Shown here piece after piece: positions 3,370 to 14,957 of a stretch of 47,900 nt of DNA. The notes below the pieces were generated by a model. The model searched no databases and was not told the DNA's origin. It saw only the letters and a program-made list of their open reading frames with translations. Numbering within the stretch: position 1 is the first letter of the stretch; every line of letters starts with the position of its first letter. Where the stretch lies: contig CAJTZB010000001.1 of assembly GCA_910583815.1 (NCBI GenBank), positions 1 to 47,900 of the forward strand. The letters run 5' to 3'. This DNA is from an uncultured Lachnospiraceae bacterium. Its GTDB lineage: Bacteria > Bacillota > Clostridia > Lachnospirales > Lachnospiraceae. A program made the position numbers and the translations under genes.

Positions 3370-4602
3370 ATGCAGAAAGAGATGGGAAAACAAAAAGTAC
3401 TAATCATAACAACAATCAGTGGCTTTCTGCAGCAGTTTGAATTAAATGATGTCAGAATTCTTCAGGCATTGGGCTATGAAGTGCATTATGCCAGCAATTT
3501 TGAAACTTCGGTTTATGGGATAGATAATGAGCAGTTGCAGAAGCTTGGGATAGTGATTCATCCAATCTCAATCCAAAAATCTCCCTGTGCGGTTGGGAAA
3601 AATTTAAAAGCTTTGCGAGAATTGTGCAGGATAATAAGGGAGGAGCGAATTTTAGCCATTCATTGCCATAACCCTCTTGGTGGAGTGGTGGGAAGGCTAG
3701 CAGCGTTTTTGGGCGGGAAGAAAAGGCCATATGTGCTTTATACAGCACATGGCTTTCATTTTTATAAAGGTGCGCCATTCGTTAACTGGATGCTGTTTTT
3801 TCCGGCAGAATATTTGCTTGCAAGACTGACTGACTGCCTGATTACAGTCAATGAGGAGGATTATCAAAGAGTGTGCGCGATGCCTCTTAAAAAAGGCGGA
3901 AGGGCAGAACGGATACCAAGTGTCGGGATAGCAGAAGAAAAGTTTTCAGATAGGGCAGAACTTCGCATGGGAATCCGTGAAAAACATGGAATTCCCGAAG
4001 ACTGTTTTTATATTCTGACGGCAGGGGAACTGAACCGGAACAAGAACCAACAGGTTTTGCTGCATACGGTTGCTTTGCTTGGGCAGGAAAAGATACACCT
4101 TGGCATCTGTGGAGAGGGCTCTTGCCGGGAGGGTTTAAAAGTGTTGGCAGAGGAGCTTGGGATTACAGAGAAAGTCAGCTTTTTAGGATATAGGAACGAT
4201 TTGTGGGAACTTCTTGCGGCGGCAGATGCTTTTGCCTTCCCATCAATTAGAGAGGGATTTGCCATTGCACCGCTCGAAGCGTTGGCAGCAGGGCTTCCGC
4301 TGATTACATCAGAGCGAAGGGACAGCAGGGAATACATAAGGGATGAGGAAAATGGTTTCCTTTGCAGAAAAAATATACCACAGGAGTATGTGAGGGCAAT
4401 CCGTATCCTGATAAAGCAGCCTGAATTAAGGAAGAAGATGTCGGAGAACGGAAGAGAAGCAGCAAAGAAGTATGCCCTGCCCAAAACAGAGTGCATTATG
4501 AAGAAAATATATAGCAGCATTGCAAGAGAACATCCTGTCAGAAGTCCACAGCAGAATACAGAAAACCAGGCTGAATGGGCAGCCGGGAAAGAAGGAAAGT
4601 AA
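3370..4602 (+). CDS. glycosyltransferase, GT4 (GT-B, retaining type)
   Basis: VLIITT...HCHNPLGGVVGRLAA...YTAHGFHFYKGAP...ITVNEEDY in the N-terminal domain, and FPSIREGFAIAPLEALAAGLPLITS (E-x7-E-like region) in the C-terminal domain. Confidence 0.85.
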   Translation: MQKEMGKQKVLIITTISGFLQQFELNDVRILQALGYEVHYASNFETSVYGIDNEQLQKLGIVIHPISIQKSPCAVGKNLKALRELCRIIREERILAIHCHNPLGGVVGRLAAFLGGKKRPYVLYTAHGFHFYKGAPFVNWMLFFPAEYLLARLTDCLITVNEEDYQRVCAMPLKKGGRAERIPSVGIAEEKFSDRAELRMGIREKHGIPEDCFYILTAGELNRNKNQQVLLHTVALLGQEKIHLGICGEGSCREGLKVLAEELGITEKVSFLGYRNDLWELLAAADAFAFPSIREGFAIAPLEALAAGLPLITSERRDSREYIRDEENGFLCRKNIPQEYVRAIRILIKQPELRKKMSENGREAAKKYALPKTECIMKKIYSSIAREHPVRSPQQNTENQAEWAAGKEGK

Positions 4603-5484
4603 ATGCAGGAGGAAAAGCGGCCGGAAATCAGCGTGATTATGGGGGTTTATAGTAACAAAGATGCAAAATGGCTGGAAGAGAGCATTTCTTCTGTTTTGAA
4701 CCAGACATTTCCGGACTTTGAGTTCATTATTTACAGTGATGGTTCAGATGCAGCAGTGTTGAAGCAGCTTGAGCAGTATGCGAAGCAAGATAAGCGGATT
4801 ATCTTGCTGCACAACTCTATAAATCATGGTCTGGCGTATTCGCTGAATGCCTGTATTGATGTTGCAAAGGGGAAGTATCTCGCACGTATGGATGATGACG
4901 ACATCTGTATGCCAGAACGCTTTGCTGTACAGTATGCATTTCTGGAGAAACATCCGGAAGTGGACTTTGTTGGCGCAAATGTAAAACTGATAGACAGTGA
5001 TGGTGTATGGGGTGTGCGTCATATGCCAGAATATCCGAAGAAACAGGATTTCCTAAGATATTCCCCTTTTGTCCATCCCAGTATTTTTATCAGACGAAGC
5101 ATTTTTGAAAAGGCAGGAAATTATCGGTCCTCGGATGAAACCTGGAGGTGTGAGGATTATGAACTGTTTATGCGTTTCTGGAGGATGGGATGCTGTGGGT
5201 GCAATCTTAGAGAGGAACTGCTTTGTTACAGGGAGGACAGGGACGCTTACCGGAAACGGAAATGGAAATACAGAATCAATGAGGTAAAGTTACGCTACCG
5301 GAATTTTAAAGAAATGGGACTGCTGTTTCCGATTGGCTGGGCGTATGTACTGCGTCCGATTGCTGCCGGAATTATTCCGGCAAGGCTGATTTTTGAAATC
5401 AAAAGACTATATCATTTGCAGGAAAAAACAGATGAAAGACGAATGGGAAAAAAGAATCCGGCATTACCAAAGAAGGTTAAATAA
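4603..5484 (+). CDS. glycosyltransferase, GT2 (GT-A)
   Basis: ISVIMGVYSN...SVLNQTFPDFEFIIYSDGS...YLARMDDDDI (DxD). ATG follows directly after the upstream stop. Confidence 0.85.
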   Translation: MQEEKRPEISVIMGVYSNKDAKWLEESISSVLNQTFPDFEFIIYSDGSDAAVLKQLEQYAKQDKRIILLHNSINHGLAYSLNACIDVAKGKYLARMDDDDICMPERFAVQYAFLEKHPEVDFVGANVKLIDSDGVWGVRHMPEYPKKQDFLRYSPFVHPSIFIRRSIFEKAGNYRSSDETWRCEDYELFMRFWRMGCCGCNLREELLCYREDRDAYRKRKWKYRINEVKLRYRNFKEMGLLFPIGWAYVLRPIAAGIIPARLIFEIKRLYHLQEKTDERRMGKKNPALPKKVK

Positions 5485-6835
5485 GGTACCAATATTTTCC
5501 GAACTGTCGGAAAACCTGTGGACAGAATGGAAGGAAGAATTGCCTGAGCAGGCAGTATTTGCAGCAACAACAAGCTTTGTGCTGGCACCAATGCTCTGCA
5601 GTTATGTTCTCTGGGTGCTGCAGGAGGCTGTCAGGGCTGGGAAACGACGTCTGTATTTTTTGGCGCGGGATGGCTATCAGATGTATCAGATTGCAGAAAT
5701 ATTCTGTGGCAAATGGGGAATTTCGCTGGAATGCAAATATCTGTACTGTTCACGGTATGCGCTCCGTATGGCAGAGTATGCCCTGCATATAGATGCTGCA
5801 TTGGACTATTTATGTCTGGACGGCATTTATGTAACTTTGGAAACCGTATGCAACCGAGCAGGGATATTTTCTGAGGAAGAAATAGAACAAGCAGCAGAGG
5901 CGCTTGGCATAGCAGACCGTAAAAGGCGGCTTTCCTATGCTGAGTTAAAGACGCTGAGAAAAAAACTGGGGCAGTATGAGGAGTTCAAAAGGAAGATGAA
6001 AGAAAAAGGAAAAGAAGCCTATAAATCAGCGATTGGATATTTCAGACAAGAAGGGATGTTGGAAGAGATTCCTTACGCGTTAGTAGACAGTGGGTGGTCC
6101 GGCAGCATTCAGCAATCCTTTCTCCGTCTGCTTCAGAGTGCCGGGAAAAAAGAAGGGATACAGGGCTATTACTTTGGACTGTATGAATGTCCGAAAAAGG
6201 CTGACAGAAGCACGTACGGTACTTACTATTTTTCGCCGGAGCGCAGATTGCGAAGAAAGGCAGCCTTTAACAACAACCTGTTTGAATGTGTCTGCACGTC
6301 GCCGGAAGGGATGACAAAAAGGTATGAATATGAAAATGGGGGCTATGTTCCACGTCTTTCCGACAGAAAAAATCCTAACGCAGCCAAGGTAAGGGTTCAT
6401 ACGGAATATTTTAGGCGCTATGCGGAAGGTTTGGCGGAGCAGATGGAAAAAAAGAATCCAAAACAAAGGAAAGAGGCCTCCAAAGTTCTGGCCTCCCTGT
6501 TTTCCCTGCTGATGGTAAGTCCGACATTAGAGGAAGCAAGGGAATATGGAAGCTATGTGTTCTGCGATGATGTAATTGGGGAAGAAAACCAGAGACTGGC
6601 AGCACCCTTAAGTAAATATGAACTGAAAGCAAACAGGCTTTTTCCGCAGATAGTAAGGAAGTATTTCCGTATAGATAATAAAGCAAGAAGCAGTGCGTGG
6701 GCGGAGGCAAGTGCGGTGCTTGCCTATGGAAGCAGGAAGAGGGCAAGAAAAACACTTAGGCAGCTTAGGGTGGTACAGTATGTGCGTTGTTTCAGGAAGC
6801 AGAGGAAAGCAAAATGTGGGATAAAGAGCAGATAA
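5432..6835 (+). CDS. uncharacterised protein, paralogous to the C-terminal ~430 aa of the 1035-aa protein (8449-11556)
   Basis: Shared blocks are RLYFLARDGYQMY vs KVHFIARDGYLPK, YLYCSRYALRMA vs YIYASRKSMIAA, and LVDSGWSGSIQQS vs AFDLGYSGKLQAS. The start is uncertain: the ORF is open from 5393, and AGGAAA precedes ATG 5432. It overlaps the end of the GT2 gene. Confidence 0.6.
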   Translation: MKDEWEKRIRHYQRRLNKVPIFSELSENLWTEWKEELPEQAVFAATTSFVLAPMLCSYVLWVLQEAVRAGKRRLYFLARDGYQMYQIAEIFCGKWGISLECKYLYCSRYALRMAEYALHIDAALDYLCLDGIYVTLETVCNRAGIFSEEEIEQAAEALGIADRKRRLSYAELKTLRKKLGQYEEFKRKMKEKGKEAYKSAIGYFRQEGMLEEIPYALVDSGWSGSIQQSFLRLLQSAGKKEGIQGYYFGLYECPKKADRSTYGTYYFSPERRLRRKAAFNNNLFECVCTSPEGMTKRYEYENGGYVPRLSDRKNPNAAKVRVHTEYFRRYAEGLAEQMEKKNPKQRKEASKVLASLFSLLMVSPTLEEAREYGSYVFCDDVIGEENQRLAAPLSKYELKANRLFPQIVRKYFRIDNKARSSAWAEASAVLAYGSRKRARKTLRQLRVVQYVRCFRKQRKAKCGIKSR

Positions 6836-7587
6836 AGCAATATGTGTTTGTCATACGAGAACTGACAGGGAGAGAGATTAAAAGAAAGTATGCAAGGTCC
6901 TATCTTGGAATCTTGTGGAGCGTGCTGAATCCGCTTTTGTCAATGGCAGTGATGTCTTTGATTTTCTCTGCAATGTTTAAAAGGAGCATTGAAAATTATC
7001 CAATTTATTATTTGACAGGCAATATTATTTGGTCGTTTTTTACAGGAGCAACCAACAGTGCAATGACGGCGCTTGTGGACAATAAAATGATGCTGATAAA
7101 AGTGAAGCTGCCAATGTCCATTTTTCCGTTGTCGAGGTGCTATACGGCGCTTGTAAATTTTGGGTATTCTATTATTGCGTTTACGATTATGTTGCTGGTA
7201 TTTAGGATTCCGCTTCAGCCCTATATTCTGCTTTTTCTATTATATGCGATAGGAGTATTTTTCTTTTCGCTTGGCATGGGGTATTGGCTTTCTGTTTTGT
7301 ATGCAATCTTTGGGGATATTAAGCATTTGTACTCTATTTTGCTGATGCTCTGGATGTATCTGTCGGCTCTTTTTTATCCGGTAGAGAATACAACGCCGAT
7401 GATGCAGGCCATTATTTTGCGGAATCCGATTTACAGCTTTATTTCATCGGCAAGAAAATGCATTTTATATGCAGAATTTCCTAGTACAGAGGAATGGTTT
7501 AGGATGTGCGGGTGGAGTATCGGAATGTACCTGTTTGGCAGGTTAGTATTCCAGAAAATGCAAAATAAGGTGTTACAGAAAATTTAG
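6814..7587 (+). CDS. ABC-2 type polysaccharide/teichoic-acid export permease (Wzm/TagG-like)
   Basis: REIKRKYARSYLGILWSVLNPLL signature followed by six hydrophobic segments. AGAGGAAAG precedes ATG 6814. Confidence 0.85.
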   Translation: MWDKEQIKQYVFVIRELTGREIKRKYARSYLGILWSVLNPLLSMAVMSLIFSAMFKRSIENYPIYYLTGNIIWSFFTGATNSAMTALVDNKMMLIKVKLPMSIFPLSRCYTALVNFGYSIIAFTIMLLVFRIPLQPYILLFLLYAIGVFFFSLGMGYWLSVLYAIFGDIKHLYSILLMLWMYLSALFYPVENTTPMMQAIILRNPIYSFISSARKCILYAEFPSTEEWFRMCGWSIGMYLFGRLVFQKMQNKVLQKI

Positions 7588-8366
7588 TGGAAAAAGGCAG
7601 CAGGAAAATGATAGAAGAAAAACAAATTGTGATAGACATAAAGCATATCAGTATGCAGTTTCGGATTGCAAAAGAGGCGTCAGGAAGTTTAAAAGAATTC
7701 CTGATTCGGATGGTTGGGAGGCAGAACAGTTATCAGACGATAAGCGTATTGGATGACATCAGCTTTCAGGCGAAGGAAGGTGATGTTATTGGGATTATCG
7801 GAACAAATGGCTCTGGAAAAAGTACGTTACTAAAGATTGTCTCAGGGGCATTGCAGCCGACAAGCGGAACAGTCATGGTAGACCGAAGCAAAGTACAGCT
7901 TTTAACACTTGGTACCGGTTTTGATATGGAACTGACAGCAAGAGAAAATGTATATCTGAATGGTGCGCTTATCGGCTACAGTAAGGAGTACTTGGATAGA
8001 ACATATGATGAAATTGTGGCTTTTGCCGAACTGGAAGGATTTATGGGGGAACGGATGAAGAATTTTTCTTCTGGTATGGTATCGCGGCTTGGTTTTGCGA
8101 TTGCCACAATGAGGGATACGCCGGAGATTCTGATTTTGGACGAAGTGCTGAGTGTTGGTGACATGTTCTTCCGAAAAAAGAGCGAGCAAAGGATCCAAGA
8201 GATGATACATGGCGGTGCGACCGTGCTGATTGTGTCGCATTCATTGGATGTTATTTTGAAAAACTGCAATTATGCAGTCTGGATTGAAAAAGGAAAGTTA
8301 CAGATGGCAGGTGCTGTAAAAGAAGTATGCGAGGGGTATAGAGGATACCAGAACAGAAAGAAATAG
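7587..8366 (+). CDS. ABC transporter ATP-binding protein (Wzt/TagH-like, no C-terminal carbohydrate-binding extension)
   Basis: Walker A GTNGSGKST, signature FSSGMVSRLGFA, Walker B ILILDE. The start is either GTG 7587 (overlapping the upstream stop) or ATG 7608. Confidence 0.85.
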   Translation: MEKGSRKMIEEKQIVIDIKHISMQFRIAKEASGSLKEFLIRMVGRQNSYQTISVLDDISFQAKEGDVIGIIGTNGSGKSTLLKIVSGALQPTSGTVMVDRSKVQLLTLGTGFDMELTARENVYLNGALIGYSKEYLDRTYDEIVAFAELEGFMGERMKNFSSGMVSRLGFAIATMRDTPEILILDEVLSVGDMFFRKKSEQRIQEMIHGGATVLIVSHSLDVILKNCNYAVWIEKGKLQMAGAVKEVCEGYRGYQNRKK

Positions 8367-8390
8367 AAGAACTACAGGAGGAAAAGTGAA

Positions 8391-8501
8391 ATGGGGACGG
8401 GAAAAAACAAAAAAGGGAAAATAAGGGAATTCGGGGGGGGGCAGAGATGTGGAAGAAAATGTAATCTATCCGAAGCTTTCGGTGATTGTACCGGTATATA
8501 A
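8391..8501 (+). other. 36-codon out-of-frame leader ORF that begins at the only good RBS/ATG upstream of the 1035-aa gene and runs through the G9 tract
   Basis: AGGAGG 8376-8381, ATG 8391, reads MGTGKNKKGKIREFGGGQRCGRKCNLSEAFGDCTGI, stop TAA 8499-8501. Removing one G would put it in frame with 8449-11556. Confidence 0.4.
8433..8441 (+). repeat. homopolymeric G9 tract (candidate slipped-strand phase-variation site)
   Basis: Direct read: tcGGGGGGGGGcagag. Confidence 0.9.
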
Positions 8502-11500
8502 TACGGAAAAATATATAGAAAACTGTCTGAACAGCATTAGCAGGCAGACATATCAGGATATGGAAGTCATCGTAGTGAATGATGGAAGCACAGATGGCTC
8601 TGCAGATATTATAGATCGTCTGATGCAAAAAGACAAGCGTATCAGATGTATTGCCAAAGAGAAAAATGGAGGGCTTTTTTGTGCAAGAGTCACAGGTGTG
8701 GAAAACTCTTTGGGAAAGTATATCGCTTTTGTAGACAGCGATGATACAGTCAGTGTGGATTGGTTTCGGCTTCTTGTGAAAAAAGCAGAAGAGACTGAAG
8801 CAGACATTGTTATGGGAAACACCGTTTGTGAAGATGAGAAACACAATAAATATATTTACAACACTTATTATTTTGCTGCGCGGTCAAGAGAGGATGTGCA
8901 TGGAGAGGCAGTCTTGGATTCTTTGATGGAAAATGAAGGAATGTGCTTTTCTAAGCATACCGTCTGGAACAAGCTGTATTCAAGAAGGATATGGGAACAG
9001 GCCCTGCCGCATTTCAGAATGATAAAACAGCATTTTGTTATGACAGAAGATATAGCATTTTCTGTAGTGCTTCATTATTATGCAAAAAAGCTGGCATATT
9101 CCAGACACGATGGATATTTCTATTATCGTAATGGAAGTTCTTCCACGATTGCAGTCAATGGATTGGAAAAGATAAAGAAAAATGTGAAAGACTTAAAGAA
9201 ATCTTTTTCCTTTGTGAAAGCATTTCTTCAGGAAAAAGAAGTATTTGAAAAATATGAAAAGAAATATCAAAACCTGAAAGACAGATATTTCAGATGGTGG
9301 AGTTATTCAGTAAAAAAGAATACAGAAGAAAAGTCAAAGGAAGCACAGTATGTCAGAAAGGATTTTCTTGCGTTTTTTGGAAAAACAGAGTTTGAAACTC
9401 CCAAAGAAGAGGATGATTTTTTTACAGATGCATACACAACATGGAATGGACAGTATGAGCAGTTAAAACTCTCGATTTTAGATGCAGCAATAGAATATGT
9501 TTCTTTTGATATTTTTGACACATTGATACTGCGGCCGTTTTTGGAACCAACAGATTTATATTTTTTTATGGAAAAGGAATTCAAGTCGCTGGTTCCGGGA
9601 AATCTTTCGTTTCATGAAGTAAGGGCTGATGCAGAACGTCTGTGCCGTAAAAATATAAAAATATGGGCTCCGAGCAGTCAGGATGTTACTTTGCAGGAAA
9701 TTTATGAACAGATGAGAAAGAGGTATCAATTTTCTGAGGATGTATGCAGACGCCTAATGAAAAAGGAGGAAGAGTTAGAGATTAAATTCTGCACGGAAAG
9801 AAAAGCAGGAAAAGAACTATATGAGATGGCACATGCTGCTGGAAAGAAAATTATTTTGATTTCGGACATGTATTTGGAGGAGGAAACAGTAAATGCTATT
9901 TTGCAGAAGAACGGATATACATTGCATGAAAAGCTGTTTTTGTCTTCCACGGAGCGATATTTAAAGTGTTCGGGCGATTTATTTAAAATTGCATTGCAGA
10001 CATGTCAGGTTCGGCCAGAAAGCATGCTGCATATTGGAGACAATTGGAATTCTGATTATCTGCAGCCGCCAAAGCTTGGCTGCAAATCGTTTTTTCTGCC
10101 AAAAACAAAGGATATTTTATTTAATACGCTTGGAGATGCTTATACTGGTGAGGCAATCAGTGCTACTTTTAATAATATCAATTCCATCATTGATACTTCC
10201 GCCATTATGAAAAATCCAATGGTACGTTCTTTATATGCGTTGGCTGCAAATGAGCTGTTTGACAATCCGTTTGTCTCGTTCAATTCAGCTTCAAACTATA
10301 ACAGGGATGCCTATTTTGTCGGCTATTTTACAGTGGGAATGCATTTGCTTGGGATTGGAAGATGGATGGCAAAAGAGCTGTGCAGAAGTAATTATGAAAA
10401 GGTTCATTTTATTGCAAGAGATGGTTATCTGCCTAAAAAAGTATATGACATTATCAGGAAGTACGAAACAGGTTTACCACCATCAGAATATATCTATGCA
10501 AGCAGGAAATCAATGATAGCAGCGTCAATACGTTCAAGCCTTGATTTATATAGTATCAAAGAAAACTGTTCTATTTACAGCCAGACACCAAAATCTATTT
10601 ATAAGTTATATGCGGACGTACTTGTGCCATTGGATGATGAGGTGCTTGGAAAGTTTAAAAAGCTGGGTATTTTATTTGATAGGAAATTTGCCAATGAAGA
10701 GGAGTTTCAGTTTTTTGTGGAACAGCTTGCAGAGATTGCTTATGACAAACAAAGGGCAGAAGAAAGTTATCAGAGCTGCAGCCGGTATTTTAAAGACAGA
10801 ATAGGGGAAGCGGACGTTGCGTTTGACTTGGGCTACAGCGGAAAGCTTCAGGCTTCTGTCTGCAGGGCGCTTGGATTTCCGATGGACGTGCTCTATCTGC
10901 ATTCTAACGGATTTGGAGCAACGCAGCAGGCGCGGTTTCACGGATACCATATCAAGAGCTATTATGATTTTGACACTTCGATGTCCGGTATTGTAAATGA
11001 GTTTATTTTTTCGGACTATGGTCCTTCTTGCATTGGCTACCGGATGGAGCAAGGGAAGGCTGTGCCGGTATTTGAGGAGAAAGAAACGGCATATCAGGAA
11101 AAATATCTGTTGGATGAAATTGCAAGAGGGTGCGAAAAGTATGTCGGGGATTTTTATAAAATATTTCAGGAACAGCTTTCTTTCTTCGATTTTCGCATTA
11201 TGGAGACATCGCTTCCATATGAGCGTTTTTTGATGAATCCGAAGTGGTTTGACCTGAATCTGCTGAAGTGCTGTTATCTGGAGGATGAATATTATGGGGG
11301 AATCAGCAGAAAGCGCCTTTCGGACCATTGGTGGTGGCAGATGAACCAACGCTGCCTTCTTGCGGAAAACATGCAGCAGAACAGTGGGATTGCCGTACCT
11401 TTAAATGCAGATTCGGAATTGGGGCAGATCTATCAGGATGGAGTATTTGTTGCTGTTTACCGGAAAATCAACAGGCTGTTTCCGCTTGGAAGCAGGAGGC

Positions 11501-11556
11501 GCGAATTTTTAAAGAAGATTGGCGGGAAGGTGGCAGGGCAAAGAAAAAGAACATAG
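8449..11556 (+). CDS. three-domain protein: GT2 glycosyltransferase, HAD-like hydrolase domain, and an uncharacterised C-terminal domain
   Basis: GT2: LSVIVPVYNTEKYI...VVNDGSTDGS...FVDSDD. HAD-like: VSFDIFDTLILRP (nt 9508-9522), ILISDMY, HIGDNWNSD. C-terminal: FIARDGY (10414-10428) and DLGYSGKLQ. As assembled, the only start is GTG 8449 with no clear SD. Confidence 0.8.
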   Translation: MEENVIYPKLSVIVPVYNTEKYIENCLNSISRQTYQDMEVIVVNDGSTDGSADIIDRLMQKDKRIRCIAKEKNGGLFCARVTGVENSLGKYIAFVDSDDTVSVDWFRLLVKKAEETEADIVMGNTVCEDEKHNKYIYNTYYFAARSREDVHGEAVLDSLMENEGMCFSKHTVWNKLYSRRIWEQALPHFRMIKQHFVMTEDIAFSVVLHYYAKKLAYSRHDGYFYYRNGSSSTIAVNGLEKIKKNVKDLKKSFSFVKAFLQEKEVFEKYEKKYQNLKDRYFRWWSYSVKKNTEEKSKEAQYVRKDFLAFFGKTEFETPKEEDDFFTDAYTTWNGQYEQLKLSILDAAIEYVSFDIFDTLILRPFLEPTDLYFFMEKEFKSLVPGNLSFHEVRADAERLCRKNIKIWAPSSQDVTLQEIYEQMRKRYQFSEDVCRRLMKKEEELEIKFCTERKAGKELYEMAHAAGKKIILISDMYLEEETVNAILQKNGYTLHEKLFLSSTERYLKCSGDLFKIALQTCQVRPESMLHIGDNWNSDYLQPPKLGCKSFFLPKTKDILFNTLGDAYTGEAISATFNNINSIIDTSAIMKNPMVRSLYALAANELFDNPFVSFNSASNYNRDAYFVGYFTVGMHLLGIGRWMAKELCRSNYEKVHFIARDGYLPKKVYDIIRKYETGLPPSEYIYASRKSMIAASIRSSLDLYSIKENCSIYSQTPKSIYKLYADVLVPLDDEVLGKFKKLGILFDRKFANEEEFQFFVEQLAEIAYDKQRAEESYQSCSRYFKDRIGEADVAFDLGYSGKLQASVCRALGFPMDVLYLHSNGFGATQQARFHGYHIKSYYDFDTSMSGIVNEFIFSDYGPSCIGYRMEQGKAVPVFEEKETAYQEKYLLDEIARGCEKYVGDFYKIFQEQLSFFDFRIMETSLPYERFLMNPKWFDLNLLKCCYLEDEYYGGISRKRLSDHWWWQMNQRCLLAENMQQNSGIAVPLNADSELGQIYQDGVFVAVYRKINRLFPLGSRRREFLKKIGGKVAGQRKRT

Positions 11557-11570
11557 AAGGAGGATAGTGC

Positions 11571-13085
11571 ATGGTTTTATATTTTGTAAAAACAACATAT
11601 CAATTGTTGGAGTGCATCATACATAAATTCACGGTACATGAAGCAGAAGATGCAGTGCTGCTTATAAATAATGGCCATGTGAAAAATTATCCAAATTATG
11701 AACAGCTAGAACAGTTTGGATTTAAAAAAATTATTATTTATACCACAGGAAAAATCACAAGTAAGGAAACAGATGACAAGAGGAAATTTGTAAATGATAT
11801 TGTGAAGTATTACGATGAGCTGTTTGAGAAGGATTCTATTGATTTGGATATGATGTCATGTATTTATTCTTTTGCTGCATTGCGCTTTAGTATTTATTTG
11901 ATAGAGAAAAAAAAGAAATTTTTCTTGTTTGAAGATGGGGTAGGGGCAGCGAAGACTTTAGGATTGGTTTTGTGGAGAGAAAATCTAGATAAAGTTGATA
12001 AAAATGCATTGGCAAGGAAATATGGGCTCTTTGATGGAAGCAATAGCTTAATATCTAATATCTACTATAATCCGTCTAAAGGAATTTTAGATAACAGTAA
12101 GGCAGTTTTTTATGATGTGTCAAAAGAGCTAGAAAAACTATCAGAAGAAAGGAGAGATAGTATTATTTCGTTTTTCTCCAAAGAGCATACCAAGAGGCAG
12201 CAAGAGGTTGATAATTTAGTTTTATTCCGGCATTGCTATGCCGGAAGTGAAAGCTTTGACAGCCAGCAAAGCAGTCTGTTGGAGTTTGTTTTGGATTGGT
12301 TTGGGGTAGAGGGAAATTTTGTTGTGAAGACGCATCCGATGGATATGGCTCACTACAAGGAATACCCTAATGTAGAGTGGATTGACAGACAGCTTCCCTC
12401 GGAATTATTGCCATATGTGATTGGAGATAAAGTAATAAATCTAATCGCTGTAGCTACGACGTCATTTTATTCATTTAGTGAAAGGGCTTTTAGGACTTGC
12501 TATCTCAGTTATGATGTGGCTGAAATGAAAAGGGGAATAAGCAGGGAAGTTATGGCATTAAAGCTTATCAGGGAAGTGGGATTAGAAAAGCATGTTTTTT
12601 CAATATATGGTATGTATACTCAAATTTCCAAAATAGTTATTGAAAAATATTATCAGAAAGATGTGAATGTACTATGGGGGAACTTTGGGACAAATGAAAA
12701 AGAAGTGCTGCTGATTGACGAACTGATCTGGGGAAAACAGAAGAATGACTGCAAAAAAGAATTAAACAGGTTTATGCGGCGATGCGATGCAGAATCAATA
12801 GTTGTATTTCTTGATTCAAAAGGCAATATGGAGTTTTGTAAATGTATAGATGAGGAAATGTTTCCATATATGCTGAGCTATCATATTGAGTATGATTTTG
12901 CCTATGGCACAAAGCTTAGTGAATATATACATATATGGTGTAAAAGCGATATGCTGAGAAAACGTTTAGCTTATGCAAGAAGTATAAAATTTCTTCCGTT
13001 TACTCAGACCGTTGTGAGGATTTCTATTGCAGAAGGATGGGAGAGGATAAAAATGCAGAGCCGGATTGCGATGGAGAAACTTTGA
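11571..13085 (+). CDS. putative CMP-sugar-dependent glycosyltransferase, sialyltransferase-like (GT52-like motifs), with a ~200-aa C-terminal extension
   Basis: LFEDGVG (EDG at 11931-11939) and VVKTHPMD (HP at 12333-12338) lie 134 aa apart. The N-terminus is MVLYFVKTTYQLLECIIHKF. It sits next to two cytidylyltransferase genes and is visibly more AT-rich than its neighbours. Confidence 0.5.
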   Translation: MVLYFVKTTYQLLECIIHKFTVHEAEDAVLLINNGHVKNYPNYEQLEQFGFKKIIIYTTGKITSKETDDKRKFVNDIVKYYDELFEKDSIDLDMMSCIYSFAALRFSIYLIEKKKKFFLFEDGVGAAKTLGLVLWRENLDKVDKNALARKYGLFDGSNSLISNIYYNPSKGILDNSKAVFYDVSKELEKLSEERRDSIISFFSKEHTKRQQEVDNLVLFRHCYAGSESFDSQQSSLLEFVLDWFGVEGNFVVKTHPMDMAHYKEYPNVEWIDRQLPSELLPYVIGDKVINLIAVATTSFYSFSERAFRTCYLSYDVAEMKRGISREVMALKLIREVGLEKHVFSIYGMYTQISKIVIEKYYQKDVNVLWGNFGTNEKEVLLIDELIWGKQKNDCKKELNRFMRRCDAESIVVFLDSKGNMEFCKCIDEEMFPYMLSYHIEYDFAYGTKLSEYIHIWCKSDMLRKRLAYARSIKFLPFTQTVVRISIAEGWERIKMQSRIAMEKL

Positions 13086-13102
13086 TGGAAGAGGGAGATG
13101 TT

Positions 13103-13435
13103 ATGTACTATATGGAATACAAAGAAATCGGAAGGCGGATTGCAGAAAGGCGGAAAAAACTCCGCATGACTCAGGCAGAGGTAGAGGACAGGGCAAATTT
13201 AAGCCGCAAGTATTTATCCAATATTGAACATGGACGTTCTGTTCCTTCCATTGATGTCCTGATGCAGATTGCAGATGTGTTACATAGTACGCCAAATGAA
13301 TTTTTGCTTGGGGCAGACTTGACAGGCAGGTCAGAACTGGCTGCCGCACTGACTTCCGATATCCAGCGTCTGTCAGAGGATAAGCAGGCAATAGCGAAGA
13401 GCTTTATTGGCTGGCTGGAAGAACAGCAGTCGTAA
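13103..13435 (+). CDS. XRE-family transcriptional regulator embedded in the glycan locus
   Basis: IGRRIAERRKKLRMTQAEVEDRANLSRKYLSNIEHGRSVPSIDVLMQIADVLHSTPNEFL. GAGGGAG 13091-13097 precedes ATG 13103. Confidence 0.8.
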   Translation: MYYMEYKEIGRRIAERRKKLRMTQAEVEDRANLSRKYLSNIEHGRSVPSIDVLMQIADVLHSTPNEFLLGADLTGRSELAAALTSDIQRLSEDKQAIAKSFIGWLEEQQS

Positions 13436-13470
13436 ATCATAGTGATCAATACTGAGAGGAGGAAAGGAAA

Positions 13471-14202
13471 ATGGAAAAGAAGGAAACAAATGTTCGATGG
13501 GGGGGGGTAACGGCTGTTATTCCGGTTAGGGCCGGAAGCAGGCGCCTGAAAAATAAAAATGTAGCCCCATTCGCAGGGACAAATCTTTTGCTGAATAAAA
13601 TTGAACAGCTGAAAAAGGTATCAGAGGTAGAACGCATTGTTGTTACTTCTGATTCTGACATGATGCTCGCAATGGCAGAACAGGCAGGGGCGCTGATACA
13701 TAAACGTGCACCTGAGTTTTGTGACGAATCTACCAAAACGTTTGGAGAAGTAGTACGCCATGTAGCAGAAAATGTACAAGGAGAGCATATTCTTTGGGCG
13801 ACCTGTACTTCGCCGCTTGTGTTTCCGTCTACCTATGAGCAGGCAATTGCAAAGTATTGGGAAGCACTTGAAGCAGGGTATGACTCTTTGGTTTCGTTTG
13901 AAAGAATCAAGCGTTATCTTTGGAATGAAGAAGGACCGCTTAATTATGAACTTGGACTGAAACACGTGCCTTCACAGCAGCTGCCTGACCTTTATATTGT
14001 AACCGATGGAATTTTACTTGCTCCGCGTGAAAAAATGATAGAGTGGTCTTATTTCCACGGAAGGAATCCATACAAGTTCATTGTAGACAAGCGTACTGCT
14101 ATGGATATTGATGATGGGCTTGATTTGGCGACCGCCAGGGCATGGCTTGACATGGATGAGAGCGTATCTCATATTGAGCCTTTTTCCAAAGGAACGATGT
14201 AA
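13471..14202 (+). CDS. cytidylyltransferase of the CMP-NeuAc/CMP-Kdo synthetase superfamily (CTP_transf_3-like)
   Basis: VTAVIPVRAGSRRLKNKNVAPFAGTNLL...VVTSDSD...HILWATCTSPL. AGGAGG precedes ATG 13471. Codons 10-13 contain the G9 tract. Confidence 0.8.
   Translation: MEKKETNVRWGGVTAVIPVRAGSRRLKNKNVAPFAGTNLLLNKIEQLKKVSEVERIVVTSDSDMMLAMAEQAGALIHKRAPEFCDESTKTFGEVVRHVAENVQGEHILWATCTSPLVFPSTYEQAIAKYWEALEAGYDSLVSFERIKRYLWNEEGPLNYELGLKHVPSQQLPDLYIVTDGILLAPREKMIEWSYFHGRNPYKFIVDKRTAMDIDDGLDLATARAWLDMDESVSHIEPFSKGTM
13499..13507 (+). repeat. homopolymeric G9 tract inside codons 10-13 of the cytidylyltransferase (in frame as assembled)
   Basis: Direct read: cgatGGGGGGGGGtaacg, translating ...RWGGV... 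Confidence 0.9.
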
Positions 14203-14297
14203 TCAGCAGCAAAAGAAATCCTCACGAATGGATGAAAATATCCGTCTGTGGGGATTTTTGTTTCCCGGAGACGGCAAACAGCCGAGGAGGGAAGATA

Positions 14298-14957
14298 ATG
14301 AGAGCAGCATGCTTTATACCAATTAAAGCAAATTCGGAACGTGTTCCGGGAAAGAACTTCAGAATACTGAATGGAAAAAAGCTATATGAGTACATAGTGG
14401 CGCATGCAATAGAAGCCGCCTGCTTTGATGATATTTATATTGATACAAACAGTGAGGAAATCAAGGATTATGCTTTGGAACGAGGACTGTCTGTTATTGA
14501 CCGCCTAGATACTCTGGCTCAAAATACAGCAAATGGAAATGACCTTCTTGTTTATCATGGAAAGCAATATCCGCAATATGATTATTATTTTCAGCTATTT
14601 GCAACTGCACCGTATTTACAGCCGGAATCTATCAGAAACTGTTTTGAAGCATTGGTTTCCAGCGAAGAATACGATTCCTGCTTTACTGCATTGCAGAACA
14701 ACAGCTTTTATTGGCTGAATCACATGCCGATTAATTACAGACCGGGGATTTTGCCACGCAGTCAGGATATGGTGCCGGTTGTAGAAGAAACTACCGGCAT
14801 GTATGGAATCAGTAAAGATTCTCTTGGAAAATACCAATGCAGAATCGGCAGGAATCCATATATTTATTATGTCAGTAAGTTTGAAGCAGTGGATATCAAT
14901 ACAGAGGAAGATTTGCTGATAGCAGAGTATATTGGGAAACAGTACTGGAATATGTAA
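14298..14957 (+). CDS. second cytidylyltransferase paralogue (acylneuraminate cytidylyltransferase-like family)
   Basis: MRAACFIPIKANSERVPGKNFRILNGKKLYEYIVAHAIEAACFDDIYIDTNSEEI. GAGGAGGG precedes ATG 14298. Confidence 0.8.
   Translation: MRAACFIPIKANSERVPGKNFRILNGKKLYEYIVAHAIEAACFDDIYIDTNSEEIKDYALERGLSVIDRLDTLAQNTANGNDLLVYHGKQYPQYDYYFQLFATAPYLQPESIRNCFEALVSSEEYDSCFTALQNNSFYWLNHMPINYRPGILPRSQDMVPVVEETTGMYGISKDSLGKYQCRIGRNPYIYYVSKFEAVDINTEEDLLIAEYIGKQYWNM

Follow-up and report, generated by a model that had tools for sequence, protein, structure and literature searches.

Two poly-G tracts, one near the start of a glycosyltransferase gene and the other near the start of a cytidylyltransferase gene, probably serve as slipped-strand ON/OFF contingency switches in an uncultured Lachnospiraceae bacterium. 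They lie in the 47,900-nucleotide (nt) stretch of DNA analyzed here, 'the window' (GenBank assembly GCA_910583815.1, contig CAJTZB010000001.1, positions 1 to 47,900, forward strand), within a locus that appears to direct synthesis of a cell-surface glycan. Tract 1 separates a strong start codon from the 1035-codon body of the glycosyltransferase; tract 2, 5 kb downstream, lies in the first of two cytidylyltransferase genes. Both are nine Gs long (G9) in the window, where tract 1 appears to be caught OFF and tract 2 ON. In relatives whose DNA is otherwise identical, both tracts differ in length, by 1 to 3 nt, and the changes move the start codon into or out of frame with the gene that follows. 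Switching of this kind is the best explanation we can offer for these observations.

A G tract between start codon and gene

In the window, the frame of ATG 8391 translates as MGTGKNKKGKIREFGGGQRCGRKCNLSEAFGDCTGI*, reading through the nine Gs and stopping at TAA 8499-8501 (Table 1). The short open reading frame (ORF) that results, 36 amino acids (aa) long, is called as a gene in its own right in G9 contigs. The large frame downstream is closed on its upstream side by TAA 8422-8424, and the first start available to it is GTG 8449, from which it continues for 1035 aa to position 11556. If one G is deleted, ATG 8391 becomes joined to the large frame, instead, forming an ORF of 1054 aa that begins MGTGKNKKGKIREFGGGRDVEENVIYPKLSVIVPVYN. 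The original prediction, made from the window without database searches, had described this arrangement: AGGAGG with its spacer, ATG, G run and stop; the 1035-codon frame with its upstream TAA and GTG; and the fusion brought about by loss of one G. All of these can be read in the DNA as described, and a protein of the predicted fused kind is present in public assemblies (P0001, below). Tabulated by length, G8 and G11 are in frame and yield 1054 and 1055 aa, respectively; G9 and G10 are out of frame and yield 36 and 24 codons.

Only 7 nt separate the G run from GTG 8449 downstream, and the predicted pairing of the run with the anti-Shine-Dalgarno sequence (-13.2 kcal/mol) is stronger than that of AGGAGG (-10.3). 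Ribosomes proceeding from ATG 8391 in the OFF frame would cross GTG 8449 and stop 50 nt (G9) or approximately 17 nt (G10) beyond it.

The lengths of the G runs in this DNA are striking. Across the 47.9-kb window there are 12 G runs of length 5 (15 if C is counted), none of length 6 to 8, and two of length 9, both of them in coding-strand orientation, no further than codon 17 of their genes, behind strong Shine-Dalgarno (SD) sequences and in a single glycan locus. When run lengths are modelled from the short runs, 0.012-0.026 runs of nine or more are expected where two are observed (P <= 3e-4 for two); a shuffle test, given below, is much weaker.

Tract length varies on an identical background

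A protein search found P0001, 1054 aa in length, 100% identical over the body of the enzyme and starting MGKGKNKKGKIREFGGGRDVEENV..., which is the predicted G8 fusion. P0001 is encoded on six contigs, and P0125—1055 aa, G11, with one extra Gly—on one; forms of 1035 aa (G9 or G10) occur on approximately 12. The leaders of P0001 and P0125 are the same as the 14-codon leader of the window, and the 90% cluster to which P0001 belongs also holds three 1035-aa forms, one 1055-aa form and one 1056-aa form. Orthologous loci had been proposed as the place to look for length variants, and G8, G9, G10 and G11 are all to be found in them (Table 1).

The DNA surrounding these tracts varies far less. Eleven loci from other metagenome assemblies (ERZ148647xx/148652xx, ERZ14889263, SRR176846xx and SRR29305861) have no mismatches to a reference locus, L014, over 2.9-11.5 kb, and they differ from it only by gaps of 1-3 nt at the two poly-G tracts. 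G8, G9 and G11 at tract 1 all occur on this background of zero single-nucleotide polymorphisms (SNPs), that of the L014 clone; G10 occurs in a lineage (L008) that is 0.6-0.9% divergent. A run of eight As in the same stretch (A8, 11907-11914) is invariant among the loci compared. The lineage of the window differs from the L014 clone at 18 positions in 11.5 kb, and the window differs from the public record of the same contig (CATLGQ010000001.1 of GCA_949935705.1; loci L009/L013) at only one position over that distance: position 8398 is C in the window (Thr3 of the leader) and A (Lys3) in the record and in every relative. Because at least three length states of tract 1 share a zero-SNP background, we infer that its mutation rate exceeds the substitution rate by orders of magnitude.

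These are the features by which contingency loci are recognized. Tract length is polymorphic among otherwise identical genomes; both tracts are homopolymers of at least about 7 G/C in the 5' coding region, and changes in their lengths toggle the frame. The genes affected—GT2 with a Bcs3-like ribofuranosyltransferase/HAD module, and a CMP-sugar synthetase—are of a class typical for such loci, too.

Some contigs break at the tracts. L017, a Logan contig, begins 6 nt past tract 1, and L021, a SPAdes contig, ends inside tract 2. Breaks of this kind fit with heterogeneity within samples; low coverage would give the same. In one haplotype (L007, L011 and L012), less than 1% divergent, the G run of tract 1 is interrupted by C at its start (window-equivalent 8432-8433), and seven As replace six a little upstream (8402-8408). 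Whether P0127, of 1056 aa, should count as a further ON state calls for caution, because it needs this haplotype: its ORF is opened, with G7, from a GTG equivalent to window position 8386, only 4 nt after the SD, and one of the contigs concerned has 1.8x coverage. When the 20 nt to the left of tract 1 were used to scan JGI metagenomes, the only match was a chance one, in an unrelated contig.

The upstream start is ancestral

Orthologues from sister species are 70-81% identical in aa sequence, and in all three loci examined (L041, L104 and L105) the protein has an N-terminal extension of 25-30 aa, in frame from an upstream ATG that is preceded by an SD. In L041, at 81% identity, the ATG follows an AGGAGG-type SD and its in-frame reading is MEETKQGKAAETEKSSDIGGTVKESAARPKLSVIVPVYN, with no G tract; L105 is likewise in frame and has none. 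L104 is in frame with six Gs at the homologous site, TCGGGGGGCAGAGCTATG. The original prediction had made the start used by orthologues a point of decision, and sister species start at the equivalent of ATG 8391, not at that of GTG 8449. These in-frame extensions indicate that ATG 8391 is the ancestral start, that G9 is a frameshifted state, and that the window has been caught OFF. The extension is best regarded as a real, but poorly conserved, leader, and tract 1 seems to have expanded from a shorter stretch of Gs such as the G6 of L104.

The second tract

Tract 2 lies between ATG 13471, itself preceded by a strong SD, and the body of a NeuA-like gene. It is ON at G6, G9 and G12, and OFF at other lengths. 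Among zero-SNP relatives it is either G9 or G10, independently of tract 1, and four combinations (tract 1, tract 2) have been seen: (8,9), (8,10), (9,9) and (11,10). Two tracts that assort independently in one glycan locus are one mark of a multi-tract poly-G phasome of the Campylobacter type; the other mark of that type is an excess of poly-G throughout the genome, linked to mismatch repair that is weak or absent. In the 0.6-0.9% divergent lineage, tract 2 is G10 and out of frame, reading MEKRKQMFDMGGG*. In loci of sister species (L109/L110), G9 has been kept at the same codons despite diverged flanks and a different set of genes upstream.

The leader peptides of tract 2 are scrambled across the 90% cluster around a constant GGVTAVIPVRAGS, and read MEKKETNVRW, MERRKQMFDW, MQGEKMTSDQNYAW, MFGW, MYLW or MKNEQIFG. 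Between the window and L014/L001 there are two compensating indels within 13471-13498, A4 versus A3, and T versus TT before the G run; they give MEKKETNVRW in the one case and MERRKQMFDW in the other, both in frame with G9. This compensation suggests that selection keeps ATG 13471 in frame. OFF alleles of the gene are mis-called, either as 253 aa from an upstream GTG that has no SD, or as 204 aa from an internal Met, a form that drops the conserved N-terminal nucleotide-binding stretch IPVRAGS. Because no usable in-frame start follows tract 2, its OFF state is expected to be a null, and should be a true one.

How the switch would work, and what weighs against it

We picture the mechanism as follows. 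ATG 8391, served by AGGAGG, would be the main start of translation, and slipped-strand mispairing during replication would add Gs to tract 1 or remove them. At G8 and G11, ribosomes from ATG 8391 would continue into the 1035-codon body, and the gene would be ON; at G9, as in the window, and at G10, they would stop after 36 or 24 codons, and the gene would be OFF or low. Any enzyme made in these latter states would have to start at the secondary GTG 8449. Tract 2 would work likewise in the NeuA-like gene, ON in the window and switching independently, and the population would thereby carry combinations of glycan-gene states. Slippage would be reversible, its rate setting how often cells switch; the level of each protein, and the glycan with it, would change; and the benefit to the cell might be evasion of phages or antibodies.

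Several things weigh against this scheme, or soften it. Tract 1 OFF may be leaky, with the G run acting as a predicted SD for GTG 8449, and in family members such as P0002, P0004 and P0007 the natural start is 8-12 residues ahead of the motif SVIVPVYN, much as in the GTG form. The claim in the original prediction that the gene is phase-variable and caught OFF is supported by length variation on a zero-mismatch background and by the start used in sister species, but 'OFF' may prove to be 'low', by way of GTG 8449, a weak state that the original prediction had itself raised. All copies recovered from the divergent lineage (L008; L106-L108) have both tracts out of frame, which could mean instead that the genes are dispensable there. 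Several of the ENA and Logan assemblies may share runs, so that the independent samples may number roughly 8-14, and the L011/L012 haplotype comes from a contig of 1.8x coverage. Finally, the excess of long runs is marginal when judged by dinucleotide-preserving shuffles of the window, 3 of 100 of which reach the observed G8 count.

Other explanations

The alternative that survives best, although we judge it unlikely, is that GTG 8449 is always the start of the enzyme, its ribosomes binding at the G run, and that ATG 8391 and the tract make up a leader, or an upstream ORF, that is dispensable. Real changes in length would then be nearly neutral; at most, a 19-aa tail would be gained or lost, or translation would be tuned modestly. 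The spacing and predicted pairing of the G run suit this idea, as does the N-terminus of the short form, which is typical of the family, the Pfam GT2 domain beginning at residue 11. The sequence of the leader is not conserved among relatives, moreover, and out-of-frame lengths are common, accounting for about half of the contigs. But a canonical AGGAGG and ATG, 9 nt apart, would then stand idle upstream; the leader is in frame with the enzyme in 3/3 of the sister-species loci; and in the OFF state, the ribosomes that cross GTG 8449 from ATG 8391 should occlude it. Nor does the idea extend to tract 2, which is followed only by the internal Met of the 204-aa form that loses IPVRAGS. With no suitable start downstream, a frameshift at tract 2 cannot be neutral.

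That the variation is an artefact—one true length, reported as G8, G9, G10 and G11 through homopolymer errors in Illumina reads or by assemblers—strikes us as very unlikely. Homopolymers are certainly error-prone, poly-G is a known problem in two-colour Illumina chemistry, coverage is low in several of the contigs (1.8-6x), and the tracts are sites of contig breakage. The same lengths recur, however, across several assemblies and two pipelines (ENA/SPAdes and Logan), and G8, G9 and G10 are each found in contigs of 10-17x coverage. A difference of 3 nt, G8 versus G11, is atypical of error; variation at one tract is independent of that at the other, with A8 and every other position unchanged; and frame-preserving, compensating indels of the kind found in the leader of tract 2 are expected only from selection on real sequence. 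For the window in particular, the original prediction had allowed that its tract length might be a homopolymer sequencing error. A one-off assembly error is ruled out, because four or more other assemblies also have G9 at tract 1, and it occurs in two haplotypes.

Ordinary gene decay, in which G9 would be an irreversible, inactivating frameshift in a glycan gene on its way to being lost, draws on the divergent lineage with both tracts out of frame in all copies seen, and on the general tendency of host-associated bacteria to lose surface-glycan genes, but it is most improbable given that the 1035-codon frame is otherwise intact in all of about 20 contigs, that a 0-SNP background holds lengths of both kinds, in frame and out of frame, that expansion as well as contraction has occurred (8, 9, 10, 11), and that tract 1 is uninterrupted in most lineages and tract 2 conserved across species.

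Two further mechanisms were considered and set aside. Programmed ribosomal frameshifting, or transcriptional slippage, was rejected as the main mechanism since relatives are in frame at the level of the DNA (G8, G11) and sister species are in frame as well (G6 or no tract). Switching by an invertible element does not fit, since related contigs are colinear and differ by 1-3 nt at the tracts only; nor is an invertase or inverted repeat evident, although no dedicated scan for inverted repeats was run.

Relation to known systems

The slipped-strand switching proposed for tracts 1 and 2 resembles that of the capsule, lipooligosaccharide (LOS) and flagellar-glycosylation loci of Campylobacter jejuni (cgtA, wlaN and the cj1420 family), where homopolymers of G8-G11 lie inside genes for glycosyltransferases and sugar modification. 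There, too, several independent tracts occur in one ABC-transporter-dependent (Kps-like) locus, genes are turned ON and OFF by frameshifting, lengths differ between otherwise identical genomes, and a nonulosonic-acid-type (CMP-sugar) pathway is involved. The host here differs in being a Gram-positive, spore-forming member of the Lachnospiraceae, of 43.5% G+C, and tract 1 differs in its position, an N-terminal leader that is not conserved and is closely followed by a possible secondary start. In Neisseria gonorrhoeae and Neisseria meningitidis, poly-G within the ORFs of the glycosyltransferases lgt and pgtA sets the reading frame, and ON/OFF combinations lead to glycan variants (PMC2192423, PMC2193922). 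The phylum is a different one, as are the glycans (LOS and pilin glycan), and the Neisseria tracts are mostly internal to the conserved ORF. Neisseria switching has been demonstrated experimentally.

Homopolymer frameshift switching is found outside the classical Gram-negative pathogens, as well. The sialidase NanH3 of Gardnerella (bioRxiv 10.1101/2020.09.16.300947) and genes of Mycobacterium tuberculosis (PMC10334774) were, like this locus, recognized from variation in length among genomes, and a 2025 review cites Gardnerella as a recent 'novel organism' for repeat-mediated switching. Both of these are Actinobacteria, however, and the targets are a secreted enzyme or metabolic and ESX genes rather than a cell-wall glycan locus. 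In a survey of genomes, Orsi et al. (2010; PMC2831843) found homopolymers to be enriched at the 5' ends of prokaryotic genes and claimed them to be sites of reversible inactivation. Both tracts here conform to that pattern, lying within the first 17 codons; the survey was inferential, and did not deal with this locus or with glycan genes of Lachnospiraceae.

The nearest taxon with described phase variation is Clostridioides difficile (PMC11868660, PMC5386303, PMC9286219), and with it (cwpV, flgB, cmrRST, pdcB/pdcC) and with the capsule loci of Bacteroides, the present locus shares the theme of random but heritable changes in the surface and signalling functions of gut bacteria. Those systems work differently, by flipping invertible segments, mostly at promoters, with site-specific recombinases; here, repeat length acts on translation, instead. 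In the one library of literature searched, phase variation in Clostridia appears only as recombinase-driven inversion in C. difficile, and nothing appears on Lachnospiraceae. This agrees with the original prediction, whose author was aware of no such mechanism for Clostridia glycan loci. Taken together, the comparisons support assignment of the system, by the sequence-level features of its class, to the known poly-G contingency loci, in a clade where they were not expected, and tract 2 strengthens the case.

What has been mapped so far of phase variation in gut commensals is nearly all due to invertible DNA, in Bacteroides and C. difficile. If our interpretation is right, the cheap mechanism known from Campylobacter and Neisseria would also vary the surface glycans of abundant Gram-positive anaerobes of the gut, with consequences for phage susceptibility, recognition by immunoglobulin A, and the tracking of strains. 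There are practical consequences, too. Gene callers split or truncate such genes: the lengths called here are 1035, 1054, 1055 and 1056 aa for the glycosyltransferase, and 204, 243 and 253 aa for the neighbouring gene. The tracts are also places where assemblies break, and 'pseudogenes' reported from metagenome-assembled genomes (MAGs) may represent OFF states. Mixtures of tract length could be sought directly in metagenomic reads that already exist.

A wider idea, on which we would bet against rather than for, is that second-order selection maintains sets of poly-G contingency tracts in the cell-wall glycan loci of gut-type Lachnospiraceae. The G9 of tract 2 kept in sister species, the re-framing of its leader, the apparent growth of tract 1 from G6, and the tracts of a second locus, L038 (below), are hints in this direction. 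Were it true, combinatorial switching of glycans in Gram-positive commensals would be the counterpart of inverton-driven capsule switching in Bacteroides.

Gene content of the locus

Table 1. Features of the two-tract locus, and lengths of tract 1 in related loci
Feature	Position in window, or loci	Strand	Basis or state
ABC-transporter-dependent cell-surface glycan locus, putative	3370..14957	+	Pfam and NCBIfam scans, gene tables of related loci
Shine-Dalgarno AGGAGG, 9-nt spacer to ATG 8391	8376..8381	+	sequence; predicted duplex with Firmicutes anti-SD -10.3 kcal/mol
Start ATG 8391 and 14 leader codons (MGTGKNKKGKIREF); purine-rich, lysine-rich N-terminal extension	8391..8432	+	sequence
36-codon truncated ORF of the G9 state; 53-nt overlap with GTG 8449	8391..8501	+	sequence
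Poly-G tract 1, G9 in window, codons 15-17 from ATG 8391	8433..8441	+	sequence; lengths in related contigs
Glycosyltransferase body, 1035 codons; GTG 8449 possible secondary start	8449..11556	+	Pfam, NCBIfam, PDB sequence search
Shine-Dalgarno AGGAGG, 8 nt upstream of ATG 13471	13457..13462	+	sequence; predicted duplex -15.7 kcal/mol
CTP_transf_3 cytidylyltransferase, CMP-nonulosonic/ulosonic acid synthetase-like, 243 aa	13471..14202	+	Pfam; weak PseF/KdsB matches (NCBIfam)
Poly-G tract 2, G9, codons 10-12 (W-G-G-V)	13499..13507	+	sequence; in frame (ON)
Tract 1, G8	L001-L003, L015, L016, L018		in frame
Tract 1, G9	L004-L006, L014, window		out of frame
Tract 1, G10	L008		out of frame
Tract 1, G11	L010/L019		in frame
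Tract 1, C+G7 or C+G8	L007, L011, L012		C-interrupted haplotype, also A7 replacing A6

From its domain content, we infer that the region 3370-14957 is an ATP-binding cassette (ABC) transporter-dependent cell-surface glycan locus. In order, it encodes a GT4 and a GT2 glycosyltransferase, a membrane-sized 467/480-aa protein of unknown function, an ABC-2 permease, an ABC ATPase, the GT2-HAD/ribofuranosyltransferase-like enzyme that tract 1 precedes, an unknown protein of 504 aa, an XRE helix-turn-helix (HTH) regulator, and two NeuA/PseF-like cytidylyltransferases. The stop codon of the ABC-ATPase gene (8364-8366) is separated by only 24 nt from the glycosyltransferase gene, which therefore lies inside an operon.

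The 1035-aa protein has an N-terminal GT2 domain at residues 11-139 of the GTG form (Pfam). In a search of PDB sequences, residues ~349-694 resemble the HAD-phosphatase/ribofuranosyltransferase part of the capsule polymerase Bcs3 of Haemophilus influenzae type b (PDB 8a0c/9h50), as well as the ribofuranosyltransferase of PDB 7shg. To judge from these similarities, the enzyme may attach ribofuranose derived from phosphoribosyl pyrophosphate (PRPP) in addition to its GT2 activity. The 504-aa protein (11571-13085) has no match in Pfam, NCBIfam or PDB sequence searches. Its 530-aa counterpart in a related strain (L107) has a faint match to alpha-2,8-polysialyltransferase (PF07388), which would fit with two NeuA-like cytidylyltransferases downstream. 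The 243-aa cytidylyltransferase matches NeuA and other CMP-Neu5Ac synthetases among PDB sequences. A look-up of the HTH protein between the two tracts returned the window's own record alone.

Sporulation genes, for PdaB and SpoIID, are present near the locus, and a homology search with PheT finds its nearest named relatives, at 76-77% aa identity, in Anaerocolumna, Anaerosporobacter and Clostridium sp. Marseille-P299; the organism is therefore placed in the Lachnospiraceae. In two sister-species loci, a TnpB/Cas12f-like gene (PF07282, PF27142) precedes the glycan locus (L104, 1-972; L105, 1-825); at the corresponding upstream place, the window has an AraC-type regulator, instead.

Other poly-G tracts

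Among the matches listed, an uncultured Lachnospiraceae MAG (L038, CANPTH010000049.1) has two in-frame G9 tracts of its own, at 9775-9783 and 12736-12744. They lie in adjacent genes for multi-pass membrane proteins of 696 and 627 aa, directly downstream of a homologue of the large glycosyltransferase, and they are candidate phase-variable sites in what is an unrelated Lachnospiraceae glycan locus. In mitis-group streptococci, a homologous GT2 gene has a poly-G run just before the conserved motif YITFIDxDD. The run is G8 and in frame in Streptococcus sp. SK643 (L069, 4527-4534), and G9 and frameshifted, with an early stop, in a Streptococcus-like MAG (L065, 4605-4613).

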